From Candidatus Daviesbacteria bacterium (lineage in GTDB: Bacteria > Patescibacteriota > Microgenomatia > Daviesbacterales > UBA10151), in the NCBI GenBank assembly GCA_028687915.1, contig JAQTZF010000001.1, forward strand, positions 546,634 through 610,633: a stretch of 64,000 nt of DNA, given 5' to 3'. This document shows, piece by piece, positions 3,899-46,512 of the stretch (the stretch's first letter is position 1; every line of letters begins with the position of its first letter). A program made the translations under genes and the position numbers. The notes below the pieces were generated by a model. It was not told the origin of the DNA. It saw nothing but the letters and a program-made list of their open reading frames with translations, and ran no database searches.

Positions 3899-3899
3899 T

Positions 3900-7984: not shown

Positions 7985-8029
7985 GTTTGCATTTTAGCAT
8001 TCTGATACAATTTTAAATATATTAATAAT

Positions 8030-9118: not shown

Positions 9119-9120
9119 TT

Positions 9121-9801
9121 ATGCAGGATTTAGAAACAAACGAAGAATATTTACCTTCCTTGCAAGAAGATAAAAGTTTTAATTTTTACAAGAGATTAAT
9201 AGATATTTTAGGCGGAATTGTTGGGATTATTATATTCTCTCCTATTATGATAATTACAGCAATTTGTATTAAACTTGATTCAAAAGGACCAGTTTTTGCA
9301 GATACTCCAATGAGGGTTGGTAAGAATGGAAAACATTTTAAAATGTATAAATTCCGTTCTATGGTTGTAAATGCTCATAAAATTCTTCAAAAAGACCAAA
9401 AACTATTAGAAGAGTATAAAAAGAATAGCTATAAAATTATTGATGATCCACGAATTACAAATGTGGGTAAGCTTATTAGGAAAGTATCTATTGATGAAAT
9501 GCCACAATTCTTTAATGTATTAAAAGGTGATATGAGTATTGTTGGAATCAGGCCTTATTATCCTTTTGAGCTAGAAGAGCAACAACAGAAGTATCCTCAA
9601 AGTAAAAAATTTGTTAAGATAGTTTTACAGTCTAAACCAGGAATTACTGGTGTATGGCAGGTATCAGGCCGGTCGAATATAAATTTTGATAAAAGGGTTG
9701 AAATGGATGCAGGTTATGTACAAAAGAAGTCAATTCTTTATGACCTTCAGCTTATTTTAAGAACAATACCTGTTGTTTTATTAGGCAAGGGTGCGATTTA
9801 A
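9121..9801 (+). CDS. Small monotopic phosphoglycosyl transferase (bacterial sugar transferase, WbaP/PglC-like initiating enzyme)
   Basis: It has a single N-terminal helix, followed by KGPVFADTPMRVGKNGKHFKMYKFRSM and GIRPYYP...VKPGITG, which are the bacterial sugar-transferase family motifs. Confidence 0.75.
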   Translation: MQDLETNEEYLPSLQEDKSFNFYKRLIDILGGIVGIIIFSPIMIITAICIKLDSKGPVFADTPMRVGKNGKHFKMYKFRSMVVNAHKILQKDQKLLEEYKKNSYKIIDDPRITNVGKLIRKVSIDEMPQFFNVLKGDMSIVGIRPYYPFELEEQQQKYPQSKKFVKIVLQSKPGITGVWQVSGRSNINFDKRVEMDAGYVQKKSILYDLQLILRTIPVVLLGKGAI

Positions 9802-9811
9802 ATTTACTGCC

Positions 9812-11722
9812 ATGAATATTACTAATTTAAATAAAAAACTTAATACCCTAAAACGCGCAGATGCTTCAAAAAGATCCAAAAAGGGTTGGAAATCAAGATT
9901 AATAAAATCTCTAGTTATTTTGGGAATTTTATTTCTAATTGTTTATCTGCCAGCCAGAAATATTTATTCTTCAGCAAAAAAAGCTGTTATTGGATTAAAT
10001 CAGATAAATGCAGGTATGAAAGCAGAGAATCTGCAGGATATTAGAGCTGGAGTAGATACTACTAAGGCTTCTATAGATAGTATTAGTTTTTCATTAAATT
10101 TCTATTTTTACCTTAGAATTATTCCTTTCGTAGGAGGATATTATGGTGATATTAAACATTTTGCTGAGGCAGCAAGCGATGAAATGCAAGCTGCTCAAAT
10201 AATTATTAAGGAGCTAGAGCCATATAAAAATGAACTAGGTTTTACAGGTCAATCCACAGCTGGTCAGGACAGGATTGCACAAGTGGTGAAGGTATTGGAT
10301 AAAACCTTGCCTGCAATTGATAAATTTGAACCATACATGAAAAAAGCCCGTAATGAAGTAAGTAGTATTGATGTAAATAAATATCCAGAGACTATTGGTG
10401 GGAGAATGTTAAAAAATAGGATTGATGAAGCTAAAAACTTTATTGTGGGAGCTCATATAGCTGTAACAGATGCCAGACCGGTACTTGAAGTTGCACCAAG
10501 TGTATTAGGGGAACCCAGCGCTAAAACTTATCTTATGTTGTTTCAAAATGATAAAGAGCTTCGAGCAACCGGAGGTTTTTTGACTGCCTATACTTTCTTA
10601 AAATTAGACCGGGGACATTTAACTACCACCCAATCTGATGATATTTATAGATTGGATGAAAGACTATTAAAAGTTTGTTTAAATAAGGTTTGTCCCTTGA
10701 CTCCTCCGGCACCAATTGTGAGATATTTACCAGAAGTAACAGGAAAACCCCGTACTGCATGGTCAATGAGGGATTCCAATCTTTCTCCTGATTTGCCAAC
10801 TTCAGTGAAAGACTTTGAAAGAATGTATGCAATGGTAGATAGCGCAAATGCATACAACGGAATTATTACTATTGATACTAATGTGGTAGAAGAGCTAATT
10901 AAAATTACAGGACCCATAGAGGTAAATGGTACAAAATATAGTGCAGAAATTGATAAAAGGTGTAATTGCGCTAATGTTATCTATGAATTAGAACATTATG
11001 CTGAGGTTGCTTCAAAAGGAGAAGCAGATAGGAAGGAAGTTGTTGGAACACTGATGCAAAGTATTTTGGCAAAACTTTTGGGATCTGGTATTGATAAAAT
11101 ACCAACCTTTATAAATGTGGGAGTAAAGTTAGCAAATGATAAACATATCATGATGTATATGGATGATCAAAAAGCCCAACAAGCTTTTGCCCAACTTAAC
11201 TGGACTGGTGAAATTAAAAAGGATGTTTTGGGTGATTATCTGCATATTAATGATTCTAATTTTGCCGGAGGAAAATCTAATTTATATGTGACAGAAAAAG
11301 TGACTTTAGAAATTAAAGTTAATGGAGATGGATCAGTTAAAAATAAGGTAACCATAGATTACAAAAACCCTCAGCCATTTAGTCTCTGGTTAAATGGTAT
11401 AAATCGTAGTTATGTTCGAATTTATGCCCCCAGGGGCTCTAAATTGACATATTCCAAAGGATCAGACGATCCTGTAAATGAGGTTGATGATGAGGTTTTA
11501 AACAAAACATATTTTGAAGGTTTCGTACAAGTCAGACCACAAAATTCCAGAACTTTAGTTCTAGAATATACTTTGCCATTTAAAGTTACAGATAAGAAAT
11601 ACCCTTTATTAATTCAAAAGCAGCCTGGTACAAAAGATTATCATTACACAGTTAAGATTAATGGTGTCACTAAAGCAGATCTTGATTTAAATACTGATAA
11701 AACACTTAATTTAACCTACTAA
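9812..11722 (+). CDS. Large membrane-anchored extracytoplasmic protein of unknown function
   Basis: It has one N-terminal TM helix (LVILGILFLIVYLPA) followed by an exported domain of about 600 aa. No motif I can name was recognised. It lies at the end of the glycan cluster. The ATG at 9812 is preferred over the GTG at 9791. Confidence 0.4.
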   Translation: MNITNLNKKLNTLKRADASKRSKKGWKSRLIKSLVILGILFLIVYLPARNIYSSAKKAVIGLNQINAGMKAENLQDIRAGVDTTKASIDSISFSLNFYFYLRIIPFVGGYYGDIKHFAEAASDEMQAAQIIIKELEPYKNELGFTGQSTAGQDRIAQVVKVLDKTLPAIDKFEPYMKKARNEVSSIDVNKYPETIGGRMLKNRIDEAKNFIVGAHIAVTDARPVLEVAPSVLGEPSAKTYLMLFQNDKELRATGGFLTAYTFLKLDRGHLTTTQSDDIYRLDERLLKVCLNKVCPLTPPAPIVRYLPEVTGKPRTAWSMRDSNLSPDLPTSVKDFERMYAMVDSANAYNGIITIDTNVVEELIKITGPIEVNGTKYSAEIDKRCNCANVIYELEHYAEVASKGEADRKEVVGTLMQSILAKLLGSGIDKIPTFINVGVKLANDKHIMMYMDDQKAQQAFAQLNWTGEIKKDVLGDYLHINDSNFAGGKSNLYVTEKVTLEIKVNGDGSVKNKVTIDYKNPQPFSLWLNGINRSYVRIYAPRGSKLTYSKGSDDPVNEVDDEVLNKTYFEGFVQVRPQNSRTLVLEYTLPFKVTDKKYPLLIQKQPGTKDYHYTVKINGVTKADLDLNTDKTLNLTY

Positions 11723-15362: not shown

Positions 15363-16244
15363 ATGCTAACTTTAAAGAGTGTCATTAGTAATAAATTTAA
15401 TTTCATACTTATTCTTATTGTCCTATTACTTTTAGGTGGAGGATTTTTTGCCTATCAAAAATTTGTTGCTTCCAGGGCACAAGAACAAGTACTGGAGGAG
15501 GTTGATTTAGCTTTTGATGCAGAAGGCCCTTATGCTATTCTTTATCCAAGAAGAGATGGGAATGCCTTAGTTTTAAATCTTAAAAGAACTGGTTCCTACG
15601 ATAAAATTAGTTATGATTTGGCTTATGTTAGTGATAATGGTGATAATACTGAAGCAGGTTCTGATGGGGCGTCTGCCGGAATAGATAGAGGTGTGTCTGG
15701 AGATATTAATACTAAGGATAAAAAAGGTGAATATGAACAAGAAATATTATTTGGAACATGTAGTAAGAATATTTGTAAGTATGATACCGGCGTAGAGAAT
15801 GGGACATTAACCCTTCATATTCAAAAAGGAAATAAAGCCTACAGGATGATTACACAATGGCATATTCAAAAACCAGATGTAGCTTTAGGTAAATTGACTT
15901 CAGGAGACACTCATCTTGTTTATCAGATTGATAAAAGTTCAGCAAATGAATTATCTTTAACTAGTTATTCTATAATCAATGATTTATCAGGTGCTCCTAA
16001 ATTACCTTCTGATAAACAGGTTATGGGTAAAGTTTATGCAGTAAATGTACCAGTGGCTAAAATTATGCCTCCTGGATCAATTACAATTGAGCTTGCAGAG
16101 GCACCTCCACAAGACGCAAAGATAACCCGTTTTGACGAAACTTCCGGTAAATGGATAGAGATGGATACAAAAATAAATGGCAGTACGCTAACTGCTTCAA
16201 GCGACAGCGCAGGGGTTATTACAGTCCTTTCCTCTAAAAAATAA
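15363..16244 (+). CDS. Hypothetical exported protein, N-terminal TM anchor
   Basis: It has a hydrophobic N-terminus (FNFILILIVLLLLGGGFFAY). No recognisable domain was found. Confidence 0.35.
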   Translation: MLTLKSVISNKFNFILILIVLLLLGGGFFAYQKFVASRAQEQVLEEVDLAFDAEGPYAILYPRRDGNALVLNLKRTGSYDKISYDLAYVSDNGDNTEAGSDGASAGIDRGVSGDINTKDKKGEYEQEILFGTCSKNICKYDTGVENGTLTLHIQKGNKAYRMITQWHIQKPDVALGKLTSGDTHLVYQIDKSSANELSLTSYSIINDLSGAPKLPSDKQVMGKVYAVNVPVAKIMPPGSITIELAEAPPQDAKITRFDETSGKWIEMDTKINGSTLTASSDSAGVITVLSSKK

Positions 16245-16315
16245 TTCATTTTCACAGGATTTTAATTTTTCTCTATTAGCTTCATAATTTGTGTTTTTTT
16301 CGTGAAAAAAGGGTC

Positions 16316-16343
16316 TTGACATATTATCTGTATGGTTTATTAT
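16316..16343 (+). promoter_or_regulatory. Candidate sigma70-type promoter upstream of mraZ (TTGACA-N16-TATTAT)
   Basis: TTGACA at 16316-16321 and TATTAT at 16338-16343 lie about 75 nt upstream of the mraZ start, in the position expected for a Pmra-like promoter. Confidence 0.4.
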
Positions 16344-16419
16344 GGTAAAAGATGGTGAAAAAAGGTGAAATCATTTAATTAATGATTTTATCAATATATT
16401 CTGCCCAGAAAGACACTAT

Positions 16420-16839
16420 ATGTTTTTGGGCGAATATCAAACAAAGTTTTCTGGACAAGGAAGAATTGTACTACCTAAAAAGTTTCGTAAGGAACTAATT
16501 AATGGTAAGGAGATTGTTTTAAGCAGAGGATTTGATGGGTGTATTTGGGGTTATTCTGTGACAGGTTTTACTAAAGAAGCAGAGAGGCAACTGGCAATCT
16601 CTCCCACAGAAGAAGGAGCCAGACATTTAAGAAGGTATTTGTTTTCAGGAGCAGAGGAAACAATATTAGATGAGCAGGGAAGATTTATTATTCCGAAGCA
16701 ACTGATTGATTATGCAAACATAACAGATGAGGTTGTTTTAATAGGAACAGGTGATCATTTTGAAATCTGGAATCCTAAAAAATGGAATGAGTTGATAAAC
16801 AAAATTTTAAAGAAGGGAAAACAAGATGACAATAATTAA
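16420..16839 (+). CDS. mraZ: Transcriptional regulator MraZ
   Basis: MFLGEYQTKFSGQGRIVLPKKFR plus a second repeat match the MraZ double SpoVT/AbrB-like fold. It is the first gene of the dcw cluster. Confidence 0.85.
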   Translation: MFLGEYQTKFSGQGRIVLPKKFRKELINGKEIVLSRGFDGCIWGYSVTGFTKEAERQLAISPTEEGARHLRRYLFSGAEETILDEQGRFIIPKQLIDYANITDEVVLIGTGDHFEIWNPKKWNELINKILKKGKQDDNN

Positions 16840-16896
16840 AAAAATATGGTTATTAAATTCATTAATGAAACTTTGGATAGCTCCTATTAAATAAAT

Positions 16897-17214
16897 ATGA
16901 AAAGAATTATTTTAGAAGATAAAAAGAGAAGATTAGTGCCAGTGCGTTTAGTAGTAATGGGCTTAAGTATTTTTTTAGTTGTATTGTTTTTAGAAATTTG
17001 GGTAGTAAACAGAACTTCTACCTATGGTGATAAGATTTATCAGTTAAAACAAGCTCAAGCTGCTTTAGAACTTGAAAATCAGGTTCTATCTAATAAAATT
17101 GCTGAAACATCAGCAATGGTATTACTCGAGAAAAAAGCTAATAACTTAGGTTTTAATACAATTAATCAAATAGATTACATCAAATTCTCTGATAAACTTG
17201 CTTCTGCTAATTAG
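16897..17214 (+). CDS. ftsL: FtsL-like cell division protein (TM plus coiled coil)
   Basis: It is 105 aa, with a single TM helix and then a heptad-like segment QLKQAQAALELENQVLSNKI. It sits between mraZ and ftsI. Confidence 0.5.
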   Translation: MKRIILEDKKRRLVPVRLVVMGLSIFLVVLFLEIWVVNRTSTYGDKIYQLKQAQAALELENQVLSNKIAETSAMVLLEKKANNLGFNTINQIDYIKFSDKLASAN

Positions 17215-17259
17215 TTTGTGTAAGAATTATTTTGGTTCCAAATTTAAGAGTATTTTCCC

Positions 17260-18975
17260 ATGAGGCTAAAGCTGGTTAAAATAATTTATTACTTTTTTAT
17301 TTTCCTAATAATTGTCAGATTATTTTATTGGCAGGTAATAAGATTTGATGATATGTCTGCATTGGCAGAGAAACAGCATTTAACGACTTCTTCTATAAGT
17401 GCTCCCAGAGGTTTAATTCTTTCAGAGGATGGTGGAATTTATGCCACAAATAAACCAGTTTATACTCTGTTTGTTAATCCTTTATTACTTAAGGATAAGA
17501 AAATAGTTGCTTCACAACTGGCAAAAATTATTGTTTTATCAAAAAATGTTTCTGAAACTGACTTTAAACAAGCACTCTTAACTAAACAGGATGAATTAAG
17601 TAATAAACTTAATCAAAATTTAAGCTGGGTTGCTTTGGAGAGAAATATTGAATTAGAAACAAAAAATTCAATTGAAGAATTAAAAATCCCGGGATTAGGC
17701 TTTGATGAAAGTTCTGCCAGGCTTTATCCGGAAGCTTCTTCTGCTGCTAATATTTTAGGGTTTGTGGGTTCTGATAAATTAGGAAATCCAAAGGGTTATT
17801 TTGGGATAGAAGGATATTATGACCGGCAATTAACCGGAGTTAGGGGAGAAGTAACAGAAGAAAAAGATGCTGGTGGTTTACCTATTTTGATGGGAACTTT
17901 TTTACAGCAGGAATCTAAAAAGGGCTATGATTTAACCTTAAATATTGATCGGGGTGTGCAATATATTGTGGAAAAGAAGTTAAAAGCAGGCTTAGAAAAA
18001 TATGGAGCCAAATCTGGTTCAGTTGTAATTATGGAGCCAAAAACGGGTGCTATTTTAGCAATGGCAAATTATCCAAATTACGACCCAAATAATTATACAA
18101 ATTTTTCAAAAGAAGCCTTTAAAAATTTAGTGGTTGCTGATACTTATGAACCTGGTTCAACTTTTAAAACCTTAATTATGGCAGCCGGTATTAATGAAAA
18201 TGTGGTTAAGCCAGATACTAAATGTGATACTTGTGATGGTCCTGTCACCATTGGGGAGTATAAGATACGTACCTGGGATAATAAATATCGAAAAGACGAG
18301 ACAATGCAGGATGTTCTTACTCAGTCTGATAATACAGGAATGGTTTTTGTGGGCAATAAATTGGGTCAGGATAAACTGCTTAATTATATTCAGAAATTTG
18401 GGATAGGTAAGTTAACTCAGATTGATTTAGAGGATGAGGTAAGCCCTGATATAAGGCTTAAAAAAGACTGGAAAGAGATTGATTATGCAACAGCAACATT
18501 TGGACAGGGAATTGCTGTTACACCAATTCAGATGATTCGGGCAGTTGCATCTATTGCTAATGGAGGGTATTTAGTAGAACCTCATGTTGTGAAGTCTATT
18601 AACACTAAAGATAAAGTTACAACAATTAAGCCAAAAATTATTGGTCAGCCAATTTCCAGGGAAACTGCTTATACAGTAACTCAAATGATGGTAAAGGCAG
18701 TTGATGAGGGTGAGGCTGGTAGTTATGCACCAAAAAATTATAAGATTGCCGGTAAGACTGGAACCGCTCAAATTCCAATTGCAGGTCATTATGACGCAGC
18801 CAGATATGTTGCATCATTTGTTGGGTTTGCCCCAGCAGATAACCCTAAATTTATAATGCTTGTTCGTTATGTTGAGCCAACATCTTCTATATATGGAACT
18901 TCAACAGCTGCCCCAACATTTTTTGAAATAGCTAAAGAACTTTTTTCTTATTATCAAATTACGCCTGACCGATAG
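17260..18975 (+). CDS. ftsI: Penicillin-binding protein transpeptidase (FtsI/PBP2-like)
   Basis: An N-terminal TM helix is followed by the STFK, SDN and KTGT (KTGTAQ) transpeptidase motifs. Confidence 0.8.
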   Translation: MRLKLVKIIYYFFIFLIIVRLFYWQVIRFDDMSALAEKQHLTTSSISAPRGLILSEDGGIYATNKPVYTLFVNPLLLKDKKIVASQLAKIIVLSKNVSETDFKQALLTKQDELSNKLNQNLSWVALERNIELETKNSIEELKIPGLGFDESSARLYPEASSAANILGFVGSDKLGNPKGYFGIEGYYDRQLTGVRGEVTEEKDAGGLPILMGTFLQQESKKGYDLTLNIDRGVQYIVEKKLKAGLEKYGAKSGSVVIMEPKTGAILAMANYPNYDPNNYTNFSKEAFKNLVVADTYEPGSTFKTLIMAAGINENVVKPDTKCDTCDGPVTIGEYKIRTWDNKYRKDETMQDVLTQSDNTGMVFVGNKLGQDKLLNYIQKFGIGKLTQIDLEDEVSPDIRLKKDWKEIDYATATFGQGIAVTPIQMIRAVASIANGGYLVEPHVVKSINTKDKVTTIKPKIIGQPISRETAYTVTQMMVKAVDEGEAGSYAPKNYKIAGKTGTAQIPIAGHYDAARYVASFVGFAPADNPKFIMLVRYVEPTSSIYGTSTAAPTFFEIAKELFSYYQITPDR

Positions 18976-19116
18976 AGTATAATTGTCTCGATTTCATCTC
19001 GCGCTTGAAACTCTAGCGAGTTATAATCGTCTCGATTTCATCTCGCGCTTGAAACTCTAGCGAGTTATAATCGTCTCGATTTCATCTCGCGCTTGAAACT
19101 CTAGCGAGTTATAATA
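18976..19116. repeat. Intergenic 44-bp tandem repeat x3, each unit carrying a hairpin and a TATAAT hexamer
   Basis: The unit GTCTCGATTTCATCTCGCGCTTGAAACTCTAGCGAGTTATAATC recurs with period 44, starting at 18985, 19029 and 19073. The first copy has 2 substitutions. Each unit contains the inverted repeat CTCGC...GCGAG. Confidence 0.85.
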
Positions 19117-19121
19117 TTATA

Positions 19122-20345
19122 ATGTTGAAAACTTTAAAAAAGCATATTCCACTTTCTGTGATCAATTATGGTAAGCATTTGCCAGAGGCAGTGTTGGCAA
19201 ATGTCCAAAATGGTTTTCCTGGAAAAAAACTTAAAGTAATTGGGGTGACAGGAACTGATGGAAAAACAACAACTGTAAATATGATTTATCGGATTCTACA
19301 AGCAGCTGGGAAAAAAGTTTCAATGATTTCTACCATTAATGCTGAAATTGGAGGTAAAAGTTATGATACTGGCTTACATGTTACCAGCCCTAAAACTTCT
19401 GACTTGCAGGCATTTATGAAAAAATCTGTTGAGAATGGAGACGAACTAATGGTGCTTGAAGTTTCATCTCATGCTATTTCTCAATTCAGAGTCTGGGGAG
19501 TAAATTTTGAAATTGGTGTAATTACAAATATTACACCTGATCATTTGGATTATCATGGCAGTTTTGAAAATTATGTGAAGGCTAAAGGCAGCTTATTGTC
19601 TAATGTAAAATATGCGGTTTTAAATAAGGATGATAAACAATTTGATCTTCTAAAAAAAATGACAACTGGCAAAGTGCTTACTTTCAGTAAGAATAATGAT
19701 GCGGATATTAATTATAGAAATCTACAGTTAAAATTAAAAGTTCCCGGAGAGTATAATCAATTAAATGCAGAGGCAGCTTTTTTAGTTGGGCAGGCTTTAG
19801 GAATTGAGAAAAAAGTTATTGTGGATGCCTTAAACAATTTTACAGGGCTAACAGGGAGGATGGAATCCATAGATAATAATTTAGGAATATCAGTATTCGT
19901 GGATTTTGCAACCACTTCAAATGCTTATGAAAATATTTTAGAAGACTTAAAAGCAAAAACAAAAGGTAAATTAATAATTTTATTTGGTTCTGCTGCGGAG
20001 AGGGATTCTTCCAAGAGGTCTAAAATTGGGGAAATTGCTGCCAGGTTTGCAGATATTACAATATTAACTGATGATGATCCCAGATTTGAGGATAGAAATA
20101 AAATTATGGAGGAGATTGCAGTAGGTTATTATAAAGTTAGAGGTAAGGATGATTCTCATCTATATAAACAATTGGGTCGCAAAGAAGCAATAGAATTGGC
20201 TTTTAAGCTTGCAAAAAAAGGTGATGTTATTGCACTAATAGGCAAAGGCCATGAAAAAAGTATGGCTATAGAAGGTAAAGAATTACCATGGTCTGATCAG
20301 GAAGCAGCTCTTTCCATAATTAAAAAACTTCAGTCTAAGTCCTAA
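19122..20345 (+). CDS. murE: UDP-N-acetylmuramoyl-tripeptide ligase MurE (N-terminally minimal)
   Basis: It carries the Mur ligase P-loop GVTGTDGKTTT and the motif ITPDHLDYHG. The DDPR motif (compare MurE DNPR) suggests meso-DAP type. The gene follows ftsI as in dcw clusters. At 407 aa it lacks the usual N-terminal domain. Confidence 0.65.
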   Translation: MLKTLKKHIPLSVINYGKHLPEAVLANVQNGFPGKKLKVIGVTGTDGKTTTVNMIYRILQAAGKKVSMISTINAEIGGKSYDTGLHVTSPKTSDLQAFMKKSVENGDELMVLEVSSHAISQFRVWGVNFEIGVITNITPDHLDYHGSFENYVKAKGSLLSNVKYAVLNKDDKQFDLLKKMTTGKVLTFSKNNDADINYRNLQLKLKVPGEYNQLNAEAAFLVGQALGIEKKVIVDALNNFTGLTGRMESIDNNLGISVFVDFATTSNAYENILEDLKAKTKGKLIILFGSAAERDSSKRSKIGEIAARFADITILTDDDPRFEDRNKIMEEIAVGYYKVRGKDDSHLYKQLGRKEAIELAFKLAKKGDVIALIGKGHEKSMAIEGKELPWSDQEAALSIIKKLQSKS

Positions 20346-20353
20346 GCCATACC

Positions 20354-20941
20354 ATGCAAAATAAAATTAATTTAATTATTAGTCAGTTAGGTGAGCTAAG
20401 GGTAAAAAAAGATATTGATTTAAGGGATTATGTTCAGTTTAACAATGATAAAAAGGCTAGCGCTATCTTTATAGCTACCTCTGTTTCAGAACTTTCTAAG
20501 GCTGTTTCTTTGTGTAAAGAATTACATGTTCCATACATTGTGATTGGGTCAGGCAGTAAGGTTGTATTTAAAGATCCTATGTTTTTAGGCTTGGTTATTA
20601 AAAATCGTAGCCAAAATCTAAAGATTTTTGGAATTAAAGGACAGGTTTCAAGGGCTGGAATTGGAATAAGAGAAGCTTTTATTGAGGCTGATTCAGGTGT
20701 TATTTTATCTGATTTATTTATGTTTTCAGATAAACAGGGGCTAAAGGGCTTTGATGATTTAAAGACCTCAAAAGGAACTGTTGGAGGTTCAGTTTTCAGT
20801 AATCTAAGTTTAATTGAAAAACTTACTCAAATTATTGTATTAGATAGCCAGGGGTCAGAGAAGATTAGAGATAGTAGTGACTTATCTAATCAGGATGTTA
20901 TTTTAAGAGCAATTTTTCATTTAAAAGCTAAGGAAGTTTAA
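20354..20941 (+). CDS. Truncated MurB-like protein (UDP-N-acetylenolpyruvoylglucosamine reductase FAD-binding domain only)
   Basis: It aligns by eye with the MurB N-terminal domain: VIGSGSKVVF versus LGEGSNVLF, GLVIKN, and KGTVGGSVFSN versus GCVGSSPIQN. At 195 aa it lacks the C-terminal substrate domain. Confidence 0.5.
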   Translation: MQNKINLIISQLGELRVKKDIDLRDYVQFNNDKKASAIFIATSVSELSKAVSLCKELHVPYIVIGSGSKVVFKDPMFLGLVIKNRSQNLKIFGIKGQVSRAGIGIREAFIEADSGVILSDLFMFSDKQGLKGFDDLKTSKGTVGGSVFSNLSLIEKLTQIIVLDSQGSEKIRDSSDLSNQDVILRAIFHLKAKEV

Positions 20942-20976
20942 AATTAGAATTATTTAAAGTATAATTCTATGCGTGT

Positions 20977-22164
20977 ATGGAGATTCAAAACCATCCAATT
21001 TGGAATAATATAAAGTCCTACAAAAAACCTGCTCACATGGCCAGGTTTTTTGTATCAAGGCATTTTGCTAATCTTTTCCCAAGATCTACCTTTGTGGGTA
21101 TTACAGGTTCTGTTAGTAAAACCAGTACAACTATGAGTTGCTTAAGTGTGCTTTCAGAAAAATTTCCTACTATTGCTACAGATATAAATTTAGATTCAAT
21201 ATTAAATATTCCAATAACAATCTTAAAAATAAAGCCAAAAACTAAAAAAGTGATTTTAGAAATGGGAGTGGAGTATCCAGGAGAGATGGACTTTTATTTG
21301 TCCTTAGTGAAGCCTGCTACTGCTATTATTACAAAAATTTCTTATGCTCATAGTGAATTTTTAGGAAATATAGAAGGAATCTATAATGAAAAAGCACCGC
21401 TTGTGAGACAACTTCCAAAAAATGGATTTGCAATTTTAAATTATGATGATTCTTATTGCCGGAAACTTGCAAAAGAAACTGAGGCGCAGGTAATCTTTTT
21501 TGGGATGGATTCCGATAAATGTGATATTTGGTCTTCAAATATCAGACTTGAGGATGGATTTACAAGATTTGAATTGAATTATGGGGTAGAAAGAGTAGAG
21601 GTAGCTTTTAAATATTTAGGAAGGCATATGGTTTATCCAGCTTTGGCTGCAGCTGCCTTAGGGCTTAGTTGTGATATGAGTCTTTTGCAAATTAAAAAGG
21701 GTCTGGAAAAAGTTAAATCAGTTCCACATAGATTACAGTTGATGGAAGGAATAAATGGATTTAACGTGATTGATGATACACACAATTCATCTCCTGCAGC
21801 TGTTGAAGAATCATTAAATGTATTAAATGAGTTACCTGCCAAAAAGAGAATAGCAGTTTTAGGGGAAATGAAAGAATTAGGCAAATATTCAGAAGCTCTT
21901 CACCGTGGTATTGCTCAAAAGATTTATAAGGATCGAGTTGATTTAGTTTTACTTGGTTCAGGAGATGCGCTATTTATTATTGATGAATTAATAAAGTTAG
22001 GCTTTCCAAGTGAACGGGTTGAGGCTAACTTATCTAATACACAATTAGTTAATAAGATAATAAGATATGCAGGTAAAGGAGATATTGTATTGGTAAAAGG
22101 CTCACATGCTGTTAAGCTAAGTGAAGTTGTTCAAAGAATAACTAAACAAAGTAAACATAAATAA
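20977..22164 (+). CDS. murF: UDP-N-acetylmuramoyl-tripeptide--D-alanyl-D-alanine ligase MurF (N-terminally minimal)
   Basis: It has the Mur ligase P-loop GITGSVSKTSTT. VIDDTHNSSPAAVEESL matches the MurF DDSYNANP region. It lies immediately upstream of mraY. Confidence 0.65.
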   Translation: MEIQNHPIWNNIKSYKKPAHMARFFVSRHFANLFPRSTFVGITGSVSKTSTTMSCLSVLSEKFPTIATDINLDSILNIPITILKIKPKTKKVILEMGVEYPGEMDFYLSLVKPATAIITKISYAHSEFLGNIEGIYNEKAPLVRQLPKNGFAILNYDDSYCRKLAKETEAQVIFFGMDSDKCDIWSSNIRLEDGFTRFELNYGVERVEVAFKYLGRHMVYPALAAAALGLSCDMSLLQIKKGLEKVKSVPHRLQLMEGINGFNVIDDTHNSSPAAVEESLNVLNELPAKKRIAVLGEMKELGKYSEALHRGIAQKIYKDRVDLVLLGSGDALFIIDELIKLGFPSERVEANLSNTQLVNKIIRYAGKGDIVLVKGSHAVKLSEVVQRITKQSKHK

Positions 22165-23177
22165 TGACTGAATTACTTGGATTAATTATTATTTCATTTT
22201 TTACCACCAGTCTTTTCTTGTTGCCATTTATTGATCTTCTTTATTATTTTAGATCTAAAAAAATTGCCTCTTCCCAAACATCAGTGAGTAAGAAATCAAA
22301 CACGCCAATCCATGATCAATTAATGAAAAAAGACTTTGATACACCTGTTGGAGGAGGACTCTTAGTTATACCTATAGTACTTATCTTAAATATATTAGTT
22401 TTCTATTATTCCCATTTAAGGATTAATTGGGAAGTAATTGTCATATTCTTTACTATGATTACATTTGGGCTATTAGGATTAGCAGATGACTTAAGACACA
22501 TCTATTCAAATACATTAGGAAAGTTTAAAGGCTTATCAACTGGGACAATTCTTCTCTTTCAGGTTGTTTTTGCAATTTCAGTTGCTTTAATACTATTTTT
22601 TAAAGTAGGTTTGAATAATATTTATATTCCTGTTTTTGGTAACATAATATTAGGCTGGTGGTATATTCCGTTAGCAGTTTTTGCAATTGTAGCTTTTACC
22701 AATGCATATAATATTTCTGATGGATTAGATGGTTTATCAACAGGTCTTCTGACTATTTGTTTGTTTGCCTTTTTGGCTTTAGTAAATTCAGTATTTGATC
22801 AAAATTTATCTGTTTTTGTTGGGATATGGATTGGGGCATTAATAGCATATTTGTATTTTAATGTCTTTCCGGCACGTATTTATTTAGGAGATGCGGGAGC
22901 TTTTAGTTTTGGTGCAACACTGGCAGTAGTAGGACTTTTAACAGGGAAGATATTAGCCTTGGCTGTAATTGGAGGTATTTATGTAATGATTATTCTTTCA
23001 TCTTTATTGCAAATACTTTCTAAAAAGTTTCTTAAAAGAAAAATTATTCCTGTTGCACCTATTCATATGTATTTTAAATATATTGGTTGGGAGGAACCAA
23101 AAATTGTTATGAGGTTCTGGTTAGCTGGATCAGTATTTGCTATTTTTGGTTTATGGTTAGCATTACTCTCACGGTAA
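22164..23177 (+). CDS. mraY: Phospho-N-acetylmuramoyl-pentapeptide transferase MraY
   Basis: It is a polytopic membrane protein with NAYNISDGLDGLSTG, the MraY/WecA D-D-x-x-D signature region. Confidence 0.85.
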   Translation: MTELLGLIIISFFTTSLFLLPFIDLLYYFRSKKIASSQTSVSKKSNTPIHDQLMKKDFDTPVGGGLLVIPIVLILNILVFYYSHLRINWEVIVIFFTMITFGLLGLADDLRHIYSNTLGKFKGLSTGTILLFQVVFAISVALILFFKVGLNNIYIPVFGNIILGWWYIPLAVFAIVAFTNAYNISDGLDGLSTGLLTICLFAFLALVNSVFDQNLSVFVGIWIGALIAYLYFNVFPARIYLGDAGAFSFGATLAVVGLLTGKILALAVIGGIYVMIILSSLLQILSKKFLKRKIIPVAPIHMYFKYIGWEEPKIVMRFWLAGSVFAIFGLWLALLSR

Positions 23178-23212
23178 CACTATTCTAAGGTTTAAACTGA
23201 TACAATTAATTA

Positions 23213-24313
23213 ATGAGGCATTTACACTCTATACCGCAAAAAAGAAAAATAGATATTATTTTGCTTATTACAGCAATCTTATTGGTTCTTTTGGGTTTAT
23301 TAGCAGTTTTTGATGCTTCTCAGTTTCAGGCTTTTCAGGAATTTGGAGATAAAATGTATTTTATACGTCAGCAACTAATTTCTGCGGCTCTTGGTTTTAT
23401 TCTATTAGTATTTTTTATTTTTTTTGATTATCATCGTTTAGAGAAAATTGCTCTGCCTTTTTTATTGGTCTCAATTTTATTATTAATTCTAGTATTTGTT
23501 CCTGGATTTGGTGTGCTTGCAGGAGGTGCTCATCGTTGGCTTAAATTTGCTGGATTTACTATTCAGCCAGCTGAAATAATAAAGTTATCAACTATCATTT
23601 ATTTTGCTTCTGTATTTCAAAATAAAGTACAGACTAAAACATTCGTTGTGATTTTGGGCATAGTTGCAGTAATTGTGGGTGTTTTTCAAAAGGATTTGGG
23701 TTCAGCAATAGTATATAGCCTGGTTGCTTTTTCTGTATATTTTATTGCAGGAGCTCCTACTTCTCATTTTTTAGGTTTACTATTTACCGGGATCTTTGGA
23801 GCAGTTTTTTTTATTGCAACTGCACCATATAGAATTCAAAGAGTTTTAGCTTTTTTAGATCCATTTGCTGATACCCAGGGTTTCACTTATCATATATCTC
23901 AGGTATTAATTGCAATTGGTTCCGGAGGAATTTTTGGTTTAGGTATAGGTCAATCCAGACAAAAGTTTTCTTATATTCCTGAAGTTACGACTGATTCGAT
24001 ATTCTCAATTATTGGAGAGGAGTTTGGTTTTATTGGATGTTTATTATTACTTACAGTTATTTGTTTTCTCATTTATAGATCATTTAAAATTGCTGAAAAT
24101 GCACCTGATAAATTTGGAAGACTTCTTGCTATTGGGTTAGTTGTTTGGCTGGGTTCTCAGGCTATTGTGAACTTAGCTGCAATGGTTTCCCTCTTGCCAC
24201 TTACAGGGGTACCACTGCCTTTTATTTCATATGGTGGATCAGCTCTTATTGCAAATCTTGTTACAGTTGGTATATTACTTAATATATCCAGGCAAGGACA
24301 TATTTCCAGATGA
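23213..24313 (+). CDS. ftsW: SEDS-family peptidoglycan glycosyltransferase FtsW
   Basis: It is a 10-TM protein with the SEDS motifs (PEVTTDSIFSIIGEEFGFIG, PLPFISYGGS). It sits between mraY and murG. Confidence 0.8.
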   Translation: MRHLHSIPQKRKIDIILLITAILLVLLGLLAVFDASQFQAFQEFGDKMYFIRQQLISAALGFILLVFFIFFDYHRLEKIALPFLLVSILLLILVFVPGFGVLAGGAHRWLKFAGFTIQPAEIIKLSTIIYFASVFQNKVQTKTFVVILGIVAVIVGVFQKDLGSAIVYSLVAFSVYFIAGAPTSHFLGLLFTGIFGAVFFIATAPYRIQRVLAFLDPFADTQGFTYHISQVLIAIGSGGIFGLGIGQSRQKFSYIPEVTTDSIFSIIGEEFGFIGCLLLLTVICFLIYRSFKIAENAPDKFGRLLAIGLVVWLGSQAIVNLAAMVSLLPLTGVPLPFISYGGSALIANLVTVGILLNISRQGHISR

Positions 24314-25443
24314 AGATTTTAATTACAGGAACACATTTAACACCATCTTTAGCAGTAATTAATGAGTTGCAAAAAGTTCAGGGAGTAGAAATAGTTTATA
24401 TTGGTCGTTCTACTACAATGGAAGGTGATAATACTAAATCTGTAGAATCACAGGTTTTAAAAGAATTAGGTGTGAATTTTTTGCCTATAATATCCGGAAG
24501 ATTGCAAAGAACTTTTACATTTAATATTATCCCTTCTTTGCTAAAGATTCCTTTGGGTATAATCCAGTCTGCATTTTATTTATTTAAAGAAAAACCGGAT
24601 GTTGTTTTATCAATGGGGGGATATATATCTGTTCCGGTAACAATTTGCGCCTGGTTTTATTCAATTCCAATTATTATTCATGAACAAACCCTTATTCCCG
24701 GACTTGCTAACACTATAAATAGTTGGTTTGCAGATAGGGTTGCAGTATCTTTTTCAGAAAATACTATTTTTAATAGGAATAAAACTATATTAACAGGAAA
24801 TCCATTACGTAAAGAAGTATTAGATCCCCAAAACACAAAAGACGAAGAGTTAAAAGAATTTATTAATTTAGCCAAAAAAGATAAACAACCTCTAATTTTA
24901 ATTACTGGTGGTAATCAGGGATCACATATTATTAACCAAACAATTTCAAAATCTCTTGAGGATTTACTTAGTAAAGCTTATGTAATTCATCAAACTGGCG
25001 ATTCAAAATACAAAGATTTTGAATCTTTAAATGAGCAAAGAAAATTACTTAAAAATCCGGAGAAGTATTTAGTCAGAAAATGGATAAATGGGGGTGATTG
25101 GGGAATTGTACTTAAAAATACTAATTTAGCTATATCCCGTGCAGGGATAAATACTTTGTTGGAACTTGCATATTTCTCCATACCCACAATCGTAATTCCA
25201 TTACTATCTACACATAATAAAGAGCAGTGCTTTAATGCGGAATTTTTTAAAAAATCTGGTCTGGTAAAAATAATATTTCAAAATGACCTTAACCCAGAAA
25301 TATTAAATAAAAATATTGAAGAGTCATTAAATAACTTAAGCTTACTTAAACAAAAAGCTCAGCCTTCTAAGCAGCTGGTTATTCCTGATGCTGCAAGTAG
25401 ACTGGCATTAGAAGTAATTATTTTAGCCAAGAAACCTCGATGA
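24310..25443 (+). CDS. murG: Undecaprenyldiphospho-muramoylpentapeptide beta-N-acetylglucosaminyltransferase MurG
   Basis: It has the GT28 fold. ITGGNQGSHIIN corresponds to the MurG GGSQGA motif. Its position in the dcw cluster agrees. Confidence 0.8.
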   Translation: MKILITGTHLTPSLAVINELQKVQGVEIVYIGRSTTMEGDNTKSVESQVLKELGVNFLPIISGRLQRTFTFNIIPSLLKIPLGIIQSAFYLFKEKPDVVLSMGGYISVPVTICAWFYSIPIIIHEQTLIPGLANTINSWFADRVAVSFSENTIFNRNKTILTGNPLRKEVLDPQNTKDEELKEFINLAKKDKQPLILITGGNQGSHIINQTISKSLEDLLSKAYVIHQTGDSKYKDFESLNEQRKLLKNPEKYLVRKWINGGDWGIVLKNTNLAISRAGINTLLELAYFSIPTIVIPLLSTHNKEQCFNAEFFKKSGLVKIIFQNDLNPEILNKNIEESLNNLSLLKQKAQPSKQLVIPDAASRLALEVIILAKKPR

Positions 25444-26225
25444 AAGTTAAAATTGTGTCTTTACTAGCCATCATTTTTTTTATAATTATCATATGGAGGT
25501 TAAACCTGCTATCTATTAGTACTGCTGAGGTAACAAATTTAGCAGGGTGTGTAAGCCTTGATCAGTTAAATAATGAAATAAATAGTATGGATAAAAACAT
25601 GATTTTAGTTAATGTTAATAAGCTAAAAGATAAATTGACATCAAAATATATGTGTATTAAAGATGTAAATGTTTCATATAAATTCCCTAAAACTATTAAG
25701 GTAGATATTTACGGAAGGGATTTGCTTACCAAAGTTGTTTCTGCTGATTTTGGCTCTAATTTAGTGGACATGGAATCATCAGCGTCATCACAAGCAGCTT
25801 TATTAGATTGGAATTTTCCCAGTGAGTCATCGGATGATGCTTTTGCTGTAGATGATAGTGGGTATGTTTTTATAAAAGTAAAATCAGATCATTTGATTCC
25901 TACCTTATTTTTAAATGAAGGTATAAATCTGGGGAAAAAGTTAGATCAAAAGACTTTTAATTCTGTTGGTCAAATTTTTTCAAAGATTTTGACATATGTT
26001 CCAATTTCTTATCAACCAAATTTTAAAGCAAAAGTTTATGGAACTACATTACTTGTTAATAGCTCTCCCAAGCTCGCATTTTCTTTGGAAAATGATATTT
26101 TGAGGCAACTCGCCTCTTTACAACTAATCTTGCAAAAAGCTAAAATAGATGAGAGAGCAGCTGAATTTATTGACTTAAGATTTGACAAGCCAGTAGTGCA
26201 ATATCATACAAATTTGAGTAAATAA
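25440..26225 (+). CDS. ftsQ: FtsQ/DivIB-like cell division protein
   Basis: It is a bitopic protein with an N-terminal TM helix and sits between murG and ftsA. Sequence similarity is weak, so the call is mostly positional. Confidence 0.45.
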   Translation: MKVKIVSLLAIIFFIIIIWRLNLLSISTAEVTNLAGCVSLDQLNNEINSMDKNMILVNVNKLKDKLTSKYMCIKDVNVSYKFPKTIKVDIYGRDLLTKVVSADFGSNLVDMESSASSQAALLDWNFPSESSDDAFAVDDSGYVFIKVKSDHLIPTLFLNEGINLGKKLDQKTFNSVGQIFSKILTYVPISYQPNFKAKVYGTTLLVNSSPKLAFSLENDILRQLASLQLILQKAKIDERAAEFIDLRFDKPVVQYHTNLSK

Positions 26226-26242
26226 AGTGTTAGAAAATATGT

Positions 26243-26351
26243 TTTATGGCAAAAGAGACGAGCAAGCTCTCTTTTGCAAAAAGAAAGTAAATTATGGCAA
26301 AAGATCAAAAAGTTGTCTTTTGCAAAAAGAAAGTAAATTATGGCAAAAGAT
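26243..26351 (+). repeat. Tandem triplication of the ftsA ribosome-binding/start region (TTTTGCAAAAAGAAAGTAAATTATGGCAAAAGA), creating two short upstream ORFs
   Basis: TATGGCAAAAGA occurs with an ATG at 26246, 26294 and 26340, the last being the ftsA start. The intervening units are about 46-48 bp and near-identical. The first short ORF, MAKETSKLSFAKRK, stops just before the second ATG. The second stops overlapping ftsA codons 4-5 in the +1 frame. Confidence 0.8.
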
Positions 26352-27638
26352 AAAGTAATATGTGCAATTGATGTAGGTTCCTCAAAAATCGCAACTTTGA
26401 TTGCTTCCATGGGAGAAGATGAGAAGATAAATTTAATCGGAGTGTCTGCTGTGACTTCAAAAGGAGTTAAAAAAGGCCAAATTGTAGATATTGAAGAGGC
26501 TGTGTCAGCTATTACAGAAAGCATAGAGGCTTCAGAAAGAATGGGTGGGTACTCAGTTTCTTCTGTTTTTGTGTCCATTGGAGGTCCGCATATTGAAAGT
26601 ATTAATTCGCACGCTGTGGTGGCAATAGCTAAGCCTGAAGGAGAGATTGAGGAGAATGATATTTTACGAGTTAATGATGCAGCACGTGCAGTTCCTCTTC
26701 CAACTTCTAAGGAAATATTACATGTTATTCCAAGAACCTTTACAGTTGATGGACAAGAAGGGATTAGAGATCCTATTGGTATGACTGGAGTAAGGCTTGA
26801 AACAGACACACACATTATTACAGGAGCAACTACAGCTATGAAGAATTTAATTAAGTGTATGGAATTAGTTGGAGTAAATGTAGAAGAGTTGGTTTTTACA
26901 GGAATTGCTTCAGCTCATGCAGTGTTAACTGATACAGAAAAAGAATTAGGTGTAATTTTAGTAGATATTGGAGGAGAAACTACAGATATTGTGATTTACG
27001 CAGATGGAGCGATTGCTTATTCTTCAGTTATTCCGGTTGGTGCAAGGCATATTACATCTGATTTAGCAGTTGGACTTAGAGTATCTTTAGAGTCAGCAGA
27101 GAAGATAAAGCTATATTTAGGTAAAGTTAATAAACAACCAACTATGCCGGAGGCAACTGAAAAAGAAGAAGAAAGACGAAGTTTGTCTAAACCGAAAGAA
27201 GAGCTGCTTGATGTTAGAAGCCTGGGAATTAATGAAGACATTCAAAAGATTTCTAAAAAAACTGTTGTTGATTCAATTATTAGACCAAGAGTAAGAGAAA
27301 TCTTTGAATTAGTGGGTAAAGAGGTTAAAAAGAGTGGGTTTGGAGCTCAAACTCCATCAGGCTTAGTTGTTTGTGGAGGTGGATCATTAACAGTTGGGCT
27401 TTTGGATCAGGCAAAATATGTGCTTGGTTATCCAGCACGACTCGGTAAAGTTGAAGGGTTGTCCGGCATGGTTGATGAAATAGATTCACCTGTTTTTGCA
27501 ACTGCTGCAGGATTAATAATATACGGTGCAAGAAGTGATATGAATTCACAATTTAGCTTGCCAGTACTTGCAAAAGGCTTACCAATTAAAGAAGTGGTAC
27601 AAAGAGGCATTAACTTGATAAAATCATTCTTGCCCTGA
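26340..27638 (+). CDS. ftsA: Cell division protein FtsA
   Basis: It has an actin-like ATPase fold with the motifs CAIDVGSSKIATLIA, DIGGETTDIVIY and VVCGGGS. Confidence 0.85.
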   Translation: MAKDKVICAIDVGSSKIATLIASMGEDEKINLIGVSAVTSKGVKKGQIVDIEEAVSAITESIEASERMGGYSVSSVFVSIGGPHIESINSHAVVAIAKPEGEIEENDILRVNDAARAVPLPTSKEILHVIPRTFTVDGQEGIRDPIGMTGVRLETDTHIITGATTAMKNLIKCMELVGVNVEELVFTGIASAHAVLTDTEKELGVILVDIGGETTDIVIYADGAIAYSSVIPVGARHITSDLAVGLRVSLESAEKIKLYLGKVNKQPTMPEATEKEEERRSLSKPKEELLDVRSLGINEDIQKISKKTVVDSIIRPRVREIFELVGKEVKKSGFGAQTPSGLVVCGGGSLTVGLLDQAKYVLGYPARLGKVEGLSGMVDEIDSPVFATAAGLIIYGARSDMNSQFSLPVLAKGLPIKEVVQRGINLIKSFLP

Positions 27639-27650
27639 TTTTAGCTGTTA

Positions 27651-27679
27651 TTGACGGTTAAGTATTTTACTGTTAGAAT
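27651..27679 (+). promoter_or_regulatory. Candidate sigma70-type promoter for ftsZ (TTGACG-N17-TAGAAT)
   Basis: TTGACG at 27651-27656 and TAGAAT at 27674-27679 lie in the 105-bp ftsA-ftsZ spacer. Confidence 0.4.
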
Positions 27680-27743
27680 CTGCCCAAAGAGAGTAAATTC
27701 ATGCTAATAAACTTTTTTATGAAAAAAAGTTTGAAAGCACCGA

Positions 27744-28979
27744 TTGAAAATATTATTTTCAATCTTAAATTTACAAGGTAAATTTATGCTTATAAAACCA
27801 GACGTACAAAAATTCGCAAAGATTAAAGTTATTGGCCTGGGTGGTGGAGGAACAAATGCCCTGTCTTCCATGATTGCTTTACAACAAATTCAGGGGGTTG
27901 AGTTTGTGGCTATAAATACTGATGCTCAAGCATTACTCGCAAATCAGTCCCCTACAAAAGTTCAAATTGGAGAAGCCTTAACAAAAGGTTTAGGTTCTGG
28001 AGGAAATCCTGATATAGGGCGTCAAGCTGCAGAGGAATCGGCTCAAAAGATAGAAGATGTAATACAGGATGCTGATATGGTTTTTTTAACTGCTGGAATG
28101 GGTGGAGGAACTGGAACAGGATCTATTGCTGTTGCTGCCTCAATCGCCCGTAAGTTAGGAGCTTTAACTGTTGCAGTTGTAACTAAACCTTTTAATTTCG
28201 AAGGTACCAGACGCATGATAGTTGCTGAAGAAGGAATTGAGGAACTTAGAGATAAGGTTGATGCTTTAATTGTTATCCCTAATCAAAGATTATTAGAAGT
28301 GATTGATCGTAACATGTCACTCCAAGAGGCTTTTAAAATGGCTGATAATGTTTTGGGTCAGGGTGTACAAGGTATTTCTGATTTGATTGTTATGCCAGGT
28401 TTAATTAATGTTGACTTTGCTGATGTTAAATCTATTATGACTGATGCTGGTTCTGCCTTAATGGGTATTGGTCAGGCTGGTGGTGAAAATAGGGCTGAAG
28501 TAGCAGCCAGAATGGCTATCGCTTCACACTTATTGGAAGTATCAATAGATGGTGCAAAAGGCGTGTTATTTAATATTGTTGGTGGTTCTGATTTAACTAT
28601 GGAAGAGGTTGATAAGGCTGCTAAGATTATTTCTGCAGCAGCAGACCCAGAAGCAAATATTATTTTTGGTGCAACAATTAAAGATGATCAGGAGCACTTT
28701 GACCAGATTAAAATTTCTGTTATTGCCACAGGTTTTGATCAAAATAGAGTAAGGCTCCGGGAATATGCAGGGACTGGAGCAGGAGTTGGAGTTAATCCAA
28801 TACCACAGATGAATTTTAATCAACCTCAATCTCAAAACCAGACTCAGTCCAATAGTTTTAATGCTTCAGATGACTCATCCACATCAGAAGACGAGGACGA
28901 TGTAACTATAAAACAGAATGAACCAGAAGATGATGAAAGCAGACTAGATATTCCCGCATTTCTTCGCCGTAACAATTAA
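27744..28979 (+). CDS. ftsZ: Cell division GTPase FtsZ
   Basis: It has the tubulin signature GGGTGTG and the N-terminus GLGGGGTNA. The C-terminal peptide DIPAFLRR is conserved. Confidence 0.9.
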
Positions 28980-38658: not shown

Positions 38659-38661
38659 AAT

Positions 38662-39396: not shown

Positions 39397-39398
39397 AT

Positions 39399-46508: not shown

Positions 46509-46512
46509 AAAT

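Follow-up and report, generated by a model that had tools for sequence, protein, structure and literature searches.

A conserved short MurB derivative without domain III occupies the ancestral murB position in the cell wall gene cluster of Candidatus Daviesbacteria

MurB, the UDP-N-acetylmuramate dehydrogenase of peptidoglycan synthesis, is regarded as a universal single-polypeptide enzyme of three domains and as a drug target. A MurB/C fusion is said to occur in Verrucomicrobium, and Tannerella forsythia, in which MurA and MurB are dispensable, makes peptidoglycan without either enzyme by scavenging N-acetylmuramic acid (MurNAc) through the AmgK/MurU bypass. Elsewhere in the PCMH clan, FAD subunits of the CoxM/XdhB type (medium subunits) are separate polypeptides, with the catalytic and substrate-binding parts supplied by other subunits. 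In MurB itself, domain III forms the cleft shared by NADPH and UDP-GlcNAc-enolpyruvate and contains a conserved serine and a conserved glutamate residue (PMC3689657), and parts of domain III and of the loop between domains II and III help to form the FAD pocket (PMC4408115). In the present study we analysed a gene for a 195-residue MurB derivative without domain III, found in a 64,000-nucleotide stretch of Candidatus Daviesbacteria DNA (assembly GCA_028687915.1, contig JAQTZF010000001.1, positions 546,634 to 610,633; hereafter the window), where it forms part of the division and cell wall (dcw) cluster.

The short gene (20354–20941, + strand) lies between murE (19122–20345) and murF (20977–22164). 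Its 22-kDa product matched FAD_binding_4 (PF01565) over residues 36–151 with 40.6 bits against a cut-off of 26.4, whereas the same Pfam search gave no match to MurB_C (PF02873). The NCBIfam MurB model NF010480 reached 55.9 bits against a cut-off of 259, with only profile positions 12–166 of 303 aligned, and TIGR00179 reached 34.6 bits against 144.5. The protein ends directly after the last strand of domain II (..ILxAxFxLKAK), and the alignment stops at the boundary between domains II and III. The stop codon is 35 nt before the murF start, and direct reading of this spacer (20942–20976) showed no room for MurB_C. Thus the preliminary description of this DNA was right in seeing the open reading frame (ORF) as a truncated MurB that retains only the FAD-binding half, and the frameshift it had considered cannot restore a full MurB, because there is no DNA for domain III ahead of murF.

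Two internal deletions were also found. Eight residues are missing after the GTVGG loop, corresponding to the NxH/GxYG segment which wraps the flavin in MurB, and a further ten are missing at the equivalent of the F.YR.S motif, which is gone in all members of the short family. The catalytic residues of MurB (Arg159, Ser229 and Glu325 in Escherichia coli; Ser239 and Glu335 in Pseudomonas aeruginosa) were not found in the short protein, the serine and glutamate residues belonging to the absent domain III. As a separate observation on full-length MurBs of Microgenomates (P0075, P0084, P0088, P0094 and P0101), these have F.(F/Y)(G/D/S)YD.S in place of the canonical F.YR.S, and the catalytic arginine residue appears from the alignment to be replaced by aspartate. 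The glycine-rich loops GxGS, GTxGG and (E)ADSG are nearly invariant in the short family. The N-terminal T.FK.GGPA motif is degenerate in many short forms, reading FNNDKKASA in the window protein; GGPA is retained in 22 of 24 forms whose gene is followed by murA (see below) versus 12 of 23 unlinked forms (Fisher p = 0.003, phylogeny not corrected for). Twenty columns are invariant across 27 diverse family members, including Lys69, Glu46, Gly102 and Glu111, positions that are different or variable in full-length MurBs. Lys69, in the GxGSN loop, stands where 100% of full-length MurBs have asparagine, and Glu46 and Cys54 are further invariant residues specific to the short family. A hairpin with the sequence KGKVSxxGIGxEEA (residues 95–108) is likewise conserved in the short family and variable in the full-length Microgenomates MurBs. 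An AlphaFold2 model based on a 99-sequence alignment had a pLDDT (predicted local distance difference test) of 90.7 and a pTM (predicted template modelling score) of 0.86, and the top Foldseek hits in the PDB were the MurB structures 3tx1, 4jay and 1hsk (E ~1e-12, TM 0.72–0.76), followed by other flavoenzymes of the VAO/PCMH type.

Compared with canonical type II MurB (Listeria monocytogenes 3TX1 and Staphylococcus aureus 1HSK), the short protein is homologous over domains I and II, where these enzymes are its best fold matches, and its gene is in the genomic position of the murB of related Microgenomates. It differs in the loss of domain III, in both internal deletions, in the asparagine-to-lysine exchange in GxGSN and in scores below the equivalog cut-offs. 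The CoxM/XdhB-type subunits resemble it in having the FAD-binding domain as a polypeptide of its own, but they belong to the FAD_binding_5 family and serve as electron-transfer subunits of molybdoenzymes, and partners of that sort are absent here. The nearest analogue is man-made: when LucY, a Bacillus MurB, is split, its domain 1+2 fragment ends at the same boundary and is a viable stand-alone polypeptide (PMC4408115). That fragment, however, regains the FAD pocket only with domain 3 tethered to it, and the natural short protein has more deletions. Because the NADPH/UDP-GlcNAc-enolpyruvate cleft and the Ser/Glu pair sit in the lost domain III, the 195-residue protein, as judged from its sequence, cannot be an autonomous UDP-MurNAc dehydrogenase. 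Some family members are annotated as UDP-N-acetylmuramate dehydrogenase by the Joint Genome Institute (JGI); since the short protein fails on domain III, on the catalytic residues and on the equivalog scores, this name should not be used, and the NCBI name 'FAD-binding protein' is safer. Our literature search found no paper describing the short-MurB family or the peptidoglycan gene set of Daviesbacteria or of the Candidate Phyla Radiation (CPR).

A search of 5.8 billion proteins, which relies on shared 5-mers, gave 119 matches out of 321 candidates, all of them listed. They comprised 74 clusters of ~192–204 residues with PF01565 only and 37–96% identity to the window protein, assigned to Candidatus Daviesbacteria or Microgenomates where named, followed by ~45 full-length MurBs (PF01565 plus PF02873, 298–339 residues) with 27–39% identity from Curtissbacteria, Woesebacteria and others. 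When 1.84 billion representative sequences, clustered at 50%, were searched exhaustively with a hidden Markov model (HMM), 43 ranked above the first full-length MurB; 33 of these had 180–213 residues and the rest were fragments. One match of 429 residues (P0395) resembles the short family over residues 1–126 and continues for ~300 residues without a Pfam match; it may be a fusion or a read-through. Scanning of one genome per GTDB species detected the short gene in 48 genomes, 15 of them titled Candidatus Daviesbacteria, including a closed chromosome (CP066688.1, 820,589 bp) and a 1.13-Mb contig of the window's sublineage (JBAZXP010000001.1). Across these 48 species the protein keeps a length of 192–205 residues at identities down to ~35%, and the exact window protein recurs, with the same neighbours, on an independently assembled 7.2-kb contig.

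The ratio of non-synonymous to synonymous substitution (dN/dS, Nei–Gojobori method) was 0.134 for the short gene against its 96%-identical homologue (dS 0.114; 13 synonymous and seven non-synonymous changes) and between 0.07 and 0.19 in the other pairs, taken from both sublineages. In the closest pair murF and murE reached 0.05 and 0.04 respectively, with murE at ~0.15 at greater distance; overall the short gene is on a par with murE and slightly higher than murF. The signs of a pseudogene were not seen, neither a neutral dN/dS in these pairs nor a variable length in the 48 species. These data show that the short ORF is a genuine gene under purifying selection and that its architecture is fixed across the Daviesbacteria lineage. 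Two irregularities among the records were recorded. In one JGI sample, the murE products of L010:3–1702 and L001:8829–10588 are 97% identical and the short-MurB products only 66%, which points to a breakpoint of recombination, or to chimeric assembly, where murE meets the short murB. In addition, many third-party metagenome-assembled genome records with a Daviesbacteria-type cluster (L014, L019, L020, L029–L031 and others) are titled 'uncultured Gammaproteobacteria bacterium', evidently a mislabel.

The position of the short gene was compared with the clusters of sister Microgenomates. Curtissbacteria have the order mraZ-mraW-ftsL-ftsI-x-murE-(NTP-transferase/HAD-murC fusion)-murB-murA-ddl-murF-mraY-murL-murD-ftsW-murG; Woesebacteria and others have the same order with murI replacing murL, and a dozen more metagenomic loci agree. 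Since the full-length murB of these sister lineages lies between murE and murF (L005–L007, L075–L086), the short gene sits in the ancestral murB slot. The 48 species loci were then scanned 10 kb either side with HMMs built from reference genes of the sister Microgenomates. All 48 have the order murE-shortMurB-...-murF-mraY-ftsW-murG-ftsA-ftsZ, and murC, murD, ddl, murI/L and MurB_C were detected in none of them within this range. In 24 of the loci a full-length murA (418–421 residues) follows directly 3' of the short gene and mraW is within the cluster, between mraZ and ftsL/ftsI. The start of this murA lies a median of 1 nt past the short-gene stop (−4 to 12 apart from a single gap of 93), and its product carries the motifs SGNKN, HPGGD.IG.R with aspartate at the Cys115 position, FPTDLMS and PDIRAG. 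With murA immediately following the short gene, the loss of domain III was a separate event rather than part of a larger deletion; a single event removing the C-terminal half of murB together with murA and ddl was rejected on these 24 genomes. Taken together, the results show that the short gene is the ancestral murB, trimmed of domain III precisely at the domain boundary without leaving its locus. Parsimony, with the sister lineages as reference, leads us to infer that murE-shortMurB-murA-murF with mraW in the cluster was the ancestral Daviesbacteria state.

Some features of the sister loci are of interest in their own right. Upstream of the Curtissbacteria murB in L006 lies an 874-residue fusion of NTP_transferase, HAD and MurC (7374–9998), and a MurL-type epimerase adjoins murD in the same locus (15492–16853); the other Microgenomates examined have a separate NTP_transferase before murC. 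The NTP_transferase near murC may be a MurU-like link to MurNAc salvage. In Microgenomates bacterium GW2011_GWA2 (GCA_001002845.1; L143:9546–10390) MurB is split into ORFs of 153 residues (FAD_binding_4) and 129 residues (MurB_C) in a murC-murB-murA context; the split stems from an internal deletion or frameshift and represents a pseudogene or an assembly error. Three candidates for the missing half were rejected: P0255 is a broken MurB of another Microgenomates lineage with both halves adjacent, and the stand-alone MurB_C proteins P0304 and P0351 come from frameshift-riddled long-read assemblies of non-CPR diderm bacteria.

In the genomes closest to the window (L014–L025, 44–61% identity) neither murA nor mraW is in the cluster. 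The mraW (rsmH) gene of the window (7073–7984, − strand; PF01795, 325.8 bits) is encoded on the opposite strand amid glycosyltransferase genes, 9 kb ahead of the dcw cluster, which shows that it left the cluster by relocation and not by loss. No murA, murC, murD, ddl or murI/L was found within 10 kb of the cluster in the 23 murA-less genomes. A search of JGI metagenomes with a Daviesbacteria MurA alignment recovered, besides copies linked to the dcw cluster, at least five stand-alone murA genes (56–59% identity) with no dcw genes within 6 kb; gltX is directly upstream in two and obg downstream in two. One of them (Ga0172379_10046796, GC 0.33) was recovered from a sample that also yielded two genomes of the window's sublineage. 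In a neighbour-joining tree of 61 taxa and 416 columns, the five stand-alone and the dcw-linked Daviesbacteria MurAs formed an exclusive clade (bootstrap 99/100), with the stand-alone genes branching outside the linked group. These five genes, on contigs not tied to a short-MurB genome, are thus taken to be the relocated murA of the murA-unlinked Daviesbacteria, and the window's sublineage appears later to have moved both murA and mraW out of the cluster.

Because the murA of relatives is linked or relocated and the window mraW is relocated, and because the early pathway is evidently alive in the clade and the late enzymes here are undamaged and under constraint, it is probable that murC, murD and ddl are encoded elsewhere in the genome rather than lost. 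A protein-database search for MurA, which listed the best 120 of 8000 candidates, did not recover the Daviesbacteria MurA genes later found beside the short gene, so the negatives from such searches carry no weight; this applies to the stand-alone MurB_C partner, of which none was seen among the best 120 of 8000 candidates, mostly contig-end fragments. The preliminary description correctly reported the lack of murC, murD and ddl and the order mraY-ftsW-murG-ftsQ-ftsA-ftsZ. Its view that the ORF lies where no gene normally occurs does not hold, as sister Microgenomates have murC-murB-murA-(ddl) between murE and murF. It also offered genes elsewhere or a non-canonical role as a choice; the two are not exclusive, as the genes are most likely elsewhere and the short protein, without the domain that binds both MurB substrates, must have a non-canonical role.

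As to function, we tentatively favour, with a probability of about 0.42, that the short protein is an accessory subunit of the Mur machinery, of the pseudoenzyme type, which still binds a flavin or a nucleotide. Co-translation would pair it with its cytoplasmic Mur neighbours (MurE on the upstream side, MurA or MurF on the downstream side), and it would work alongside these, the hairpin KGKVSxxGIGxEEA being a candidate interaction surface, and UDP-GlcNAc-enolpyruvate would be reduced by a protein encoded elsewhere. The most strongly conserved family-specific element is this surface-type hairpin, and constraint persists where murA has left. Natural MurC–MurB fusions exist among relatives (e.g. 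P0422, 767 residues), and therefore a partnership of MurB with a Mur ligase is plausible; in such fusions MurB is physically coupled to Mur ligases, but the complete three-domain MurB is kept. Several points weigh against an accessory subunit. The partner is guessed from operon position only, and a second MurB activity is required, of which none was observed. No full-length MurB was found on contigs longer than 208 kb in the 5-mer search, which would miss a xenologous MurB, and short forms occur on contigs of 218 kb to 1.13 Mb. CPR genomes seldom keep redundant proteins. Moreover, the near-invariant FAD-contacting loops (GxGS, GTxGG and ADSG) are more in keeping with retained cofactor binding and a redox function than with a pure scaffold.

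The last point leads to the main competitor of an accessory role, that the short module is the flavin half of a real MurB step, a split or minimal MurB which binds FAD and transfers hydride together with a partner acting in trans. Candidates for this partner are a domain III made from a gene of its own, MurA with its product still bound and offered to the module, and a non-homologous protein. Half of the species have an intact murA coupled in translation to the short gene and thus require MurB activity; the glycine loops that contact FAD are invariant, GGPA is better retained in the murA-linked forms, and the long Daviesbacteria contigs yielded no full-length MurB. When the engineered MurB LucY was divided at precisely this boundary, its fragments were well expressed and came together again as an FAD-binding protein (PMC4408115). 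However, the known catalytic residues and both substrate sites fall in the deleted parts (PMC3689657), and so do the isoalloxazine-wrapping segment after GTVGG and the equivalent of YR.S. The window protein has, in addition, a degenerate N-terminal FAD motif, a stand-alone MurB_C was not found in a search swamped by contig-end fragments, and no natural precedent is known. We regard a trans-acting flavin half as somewhat the less likely of the two. Its stronger form, in which Daviesbacteria have no canonical MurB at all and the 195-residue flavin module together with MurA or an unrecognised protein does the reduction, is more doubtful still.

A different explanation is that the early pathway (MurA–D, Ddl and MurI) was lost in the window's lineage, host precursors being scavenged and the short protein being a recruited leftover. 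CPR bacteria are typically symbionts with reduced metabolism, T. forsythia provides a precedent for peptidoglycan without a functional MurB, and murA, murC, murD, ddl and murI/L are absent both from the 64-kb window and from the scanned flanks of the 23 murA-less genomes. Scavenging nevertheless seems distinctly unlikely. In half of the clade murA is intact, catalytic residues included, and murA genes belonging to the Daviesbacteria clade are also found standing alone, away from dcw genes. The mraW gene left the cluster by relocation, and MurE, MurF, MraY, MurG, FtsW and FtsI are without exception intact and under strong constraint. We know of no import route for UDP-MurNAc-dipeptide. T. forsythia has no murA or murB at all, whereas Daviesbacteria keep murA and a conserved MurB remnant; AmgK/MurU were not seen here, and this cluster also lacks the NTP-transferase gene found beside murC in the sister lineages. 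That the gene is a functionless relic, a decaying fragment kept as a frame for passing translation from murE to murF, would agree with its overlapping or abutting its neighbours and with the loss of the catalytic half, but is highly improbable given the low dN/dS, a length held within 192–205 residues down to ~35% identity, 20 invariant columns and a confident, compact predicted fold. Finally, frameshift-split MurBs are known in other assemblies (L012, L013 and L143); for a sequencing or assembly frameshift in a full-length murB to explain the present gene is next to inconceivable, and this was refuted by the 35-nt gap to murF, the identical protein on an independent contig and an architecture common to 48 species genomes, one of them a closed chromosome. 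An accessory Mur subunit thus remains the reading that we prefer.

The window has a G+C content of ~32%, and its compact dcw cluster occupies 16420–28979 on the + strand. It begins with mraZ (16420–16839; PF02381 in the L001/L003 equivalents, with a custom HMM match in all loci), an ftsL-like gene for a 105-residue small membrane protein (16897–17214; no Pfam match, named only by its position between mraZ and ftsI) and ftsI, encoding a class B penicillin-binding protein (17260–18975; PBP_dimer and Transpeptidase in the L001/L003 orthologues). Both MurE (407 residues; Mur_ligase_M and Mur_ligase_C; TIGR01085, 361 bits against a cut-off of 257) and MurF (395 residues; Mur_ligase_M and Mur_ligase_C; TIGR01143, 273.9 bits) are without Mur-ligase domain 1. 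Their alignments begin at residue 88 of Thermotoga maritima MurE (4bub) and residue 101 of E. coli MurF (1gg4) respectively, so that the UDP-binding N-terminal domain 1 is missing in each. The same short MurE and MurF are found in Curtissbacteria and Woesebacteria (L005–L007), where MurC and MurD retain their N-terminal domains; the idea that they are lineage-specific and compensated by the short MurB was rejected, as these groups have a full-length MurB. The cluster continues on the + strand with mraY (22164–23177; PF00953), ftsW (23213–24313; PF01098, 341.9 bits), murG (24310–25443; PF03033 and PF04101), ftsQ (25440–26225; POTRA_1), ftsA (26340–27638; SHS2_FTSA and FtsA in orthologues) and ftsZ (27744–28979; Tubulin and FtsZ_C in orthologues). 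Pfam scans of the remaining genes revealed no murA, murC, murD, ddl, alr or murI in the window, and a phmmer search of all its six-frame ORFs turned up neither another Mur ligase nor a second MurB-like ORF.

Outside the cluster, a second gene of the SEDS (shape, elongation, division and sporulation) family, rodA-like (32457–33518; PF01098, 316 bits), follows directly after ileS and precedes rplU and rpmA; no mreB or pbp2 was seen adjoining it. Two dense blocks of envelope-polysaccharide genes, 105–11722 and 37876–43101, lie either side of the dcw region. They hold GT2 and GT4 glycosyltransferases, Wzy_C-like, PMT_2, Bac_transf and DUF4012 proteins and an ABC-2 exporter pair, as well as a 906-residue fusion of a methyltransferase with a double GT2. 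The region 45840–51099, with a G+C of 0.37–0.40 against a background of 0.32, encodes a 222-residue CBM_4_9 protein followed by a 1537-residue ORF with a C-terminal GDSL lipase/acylhydrolase and CBM-like regions, which may be a large surface protein, possibly horizontally acquired.

An order-level lineage of uncultured, ultra-small CPR bacteria, with at least 48 species and ~40 short-MurB clusters at 50% identity, thus has in its murB slot only a strongly conserved MurB remnant that lacks the catalytic domain. The fate of mraW and murA shows that dcw genes absent from CPR clusters can mean dispersal and not loss of the pathway. If a canonical murB is encoded elsewhere, the short protein would offer a clear example from nature of an enzyme domain turned into an accessory or pseudoenzyme Mur subunit. 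If there is no other MurB, the MurB step would be performed in some way other than the known one, and a flavin module working with a trans partner would, if true, be a new architecture for an antibiotic-targeted step thought to be invariant in peptidoglycan makers.

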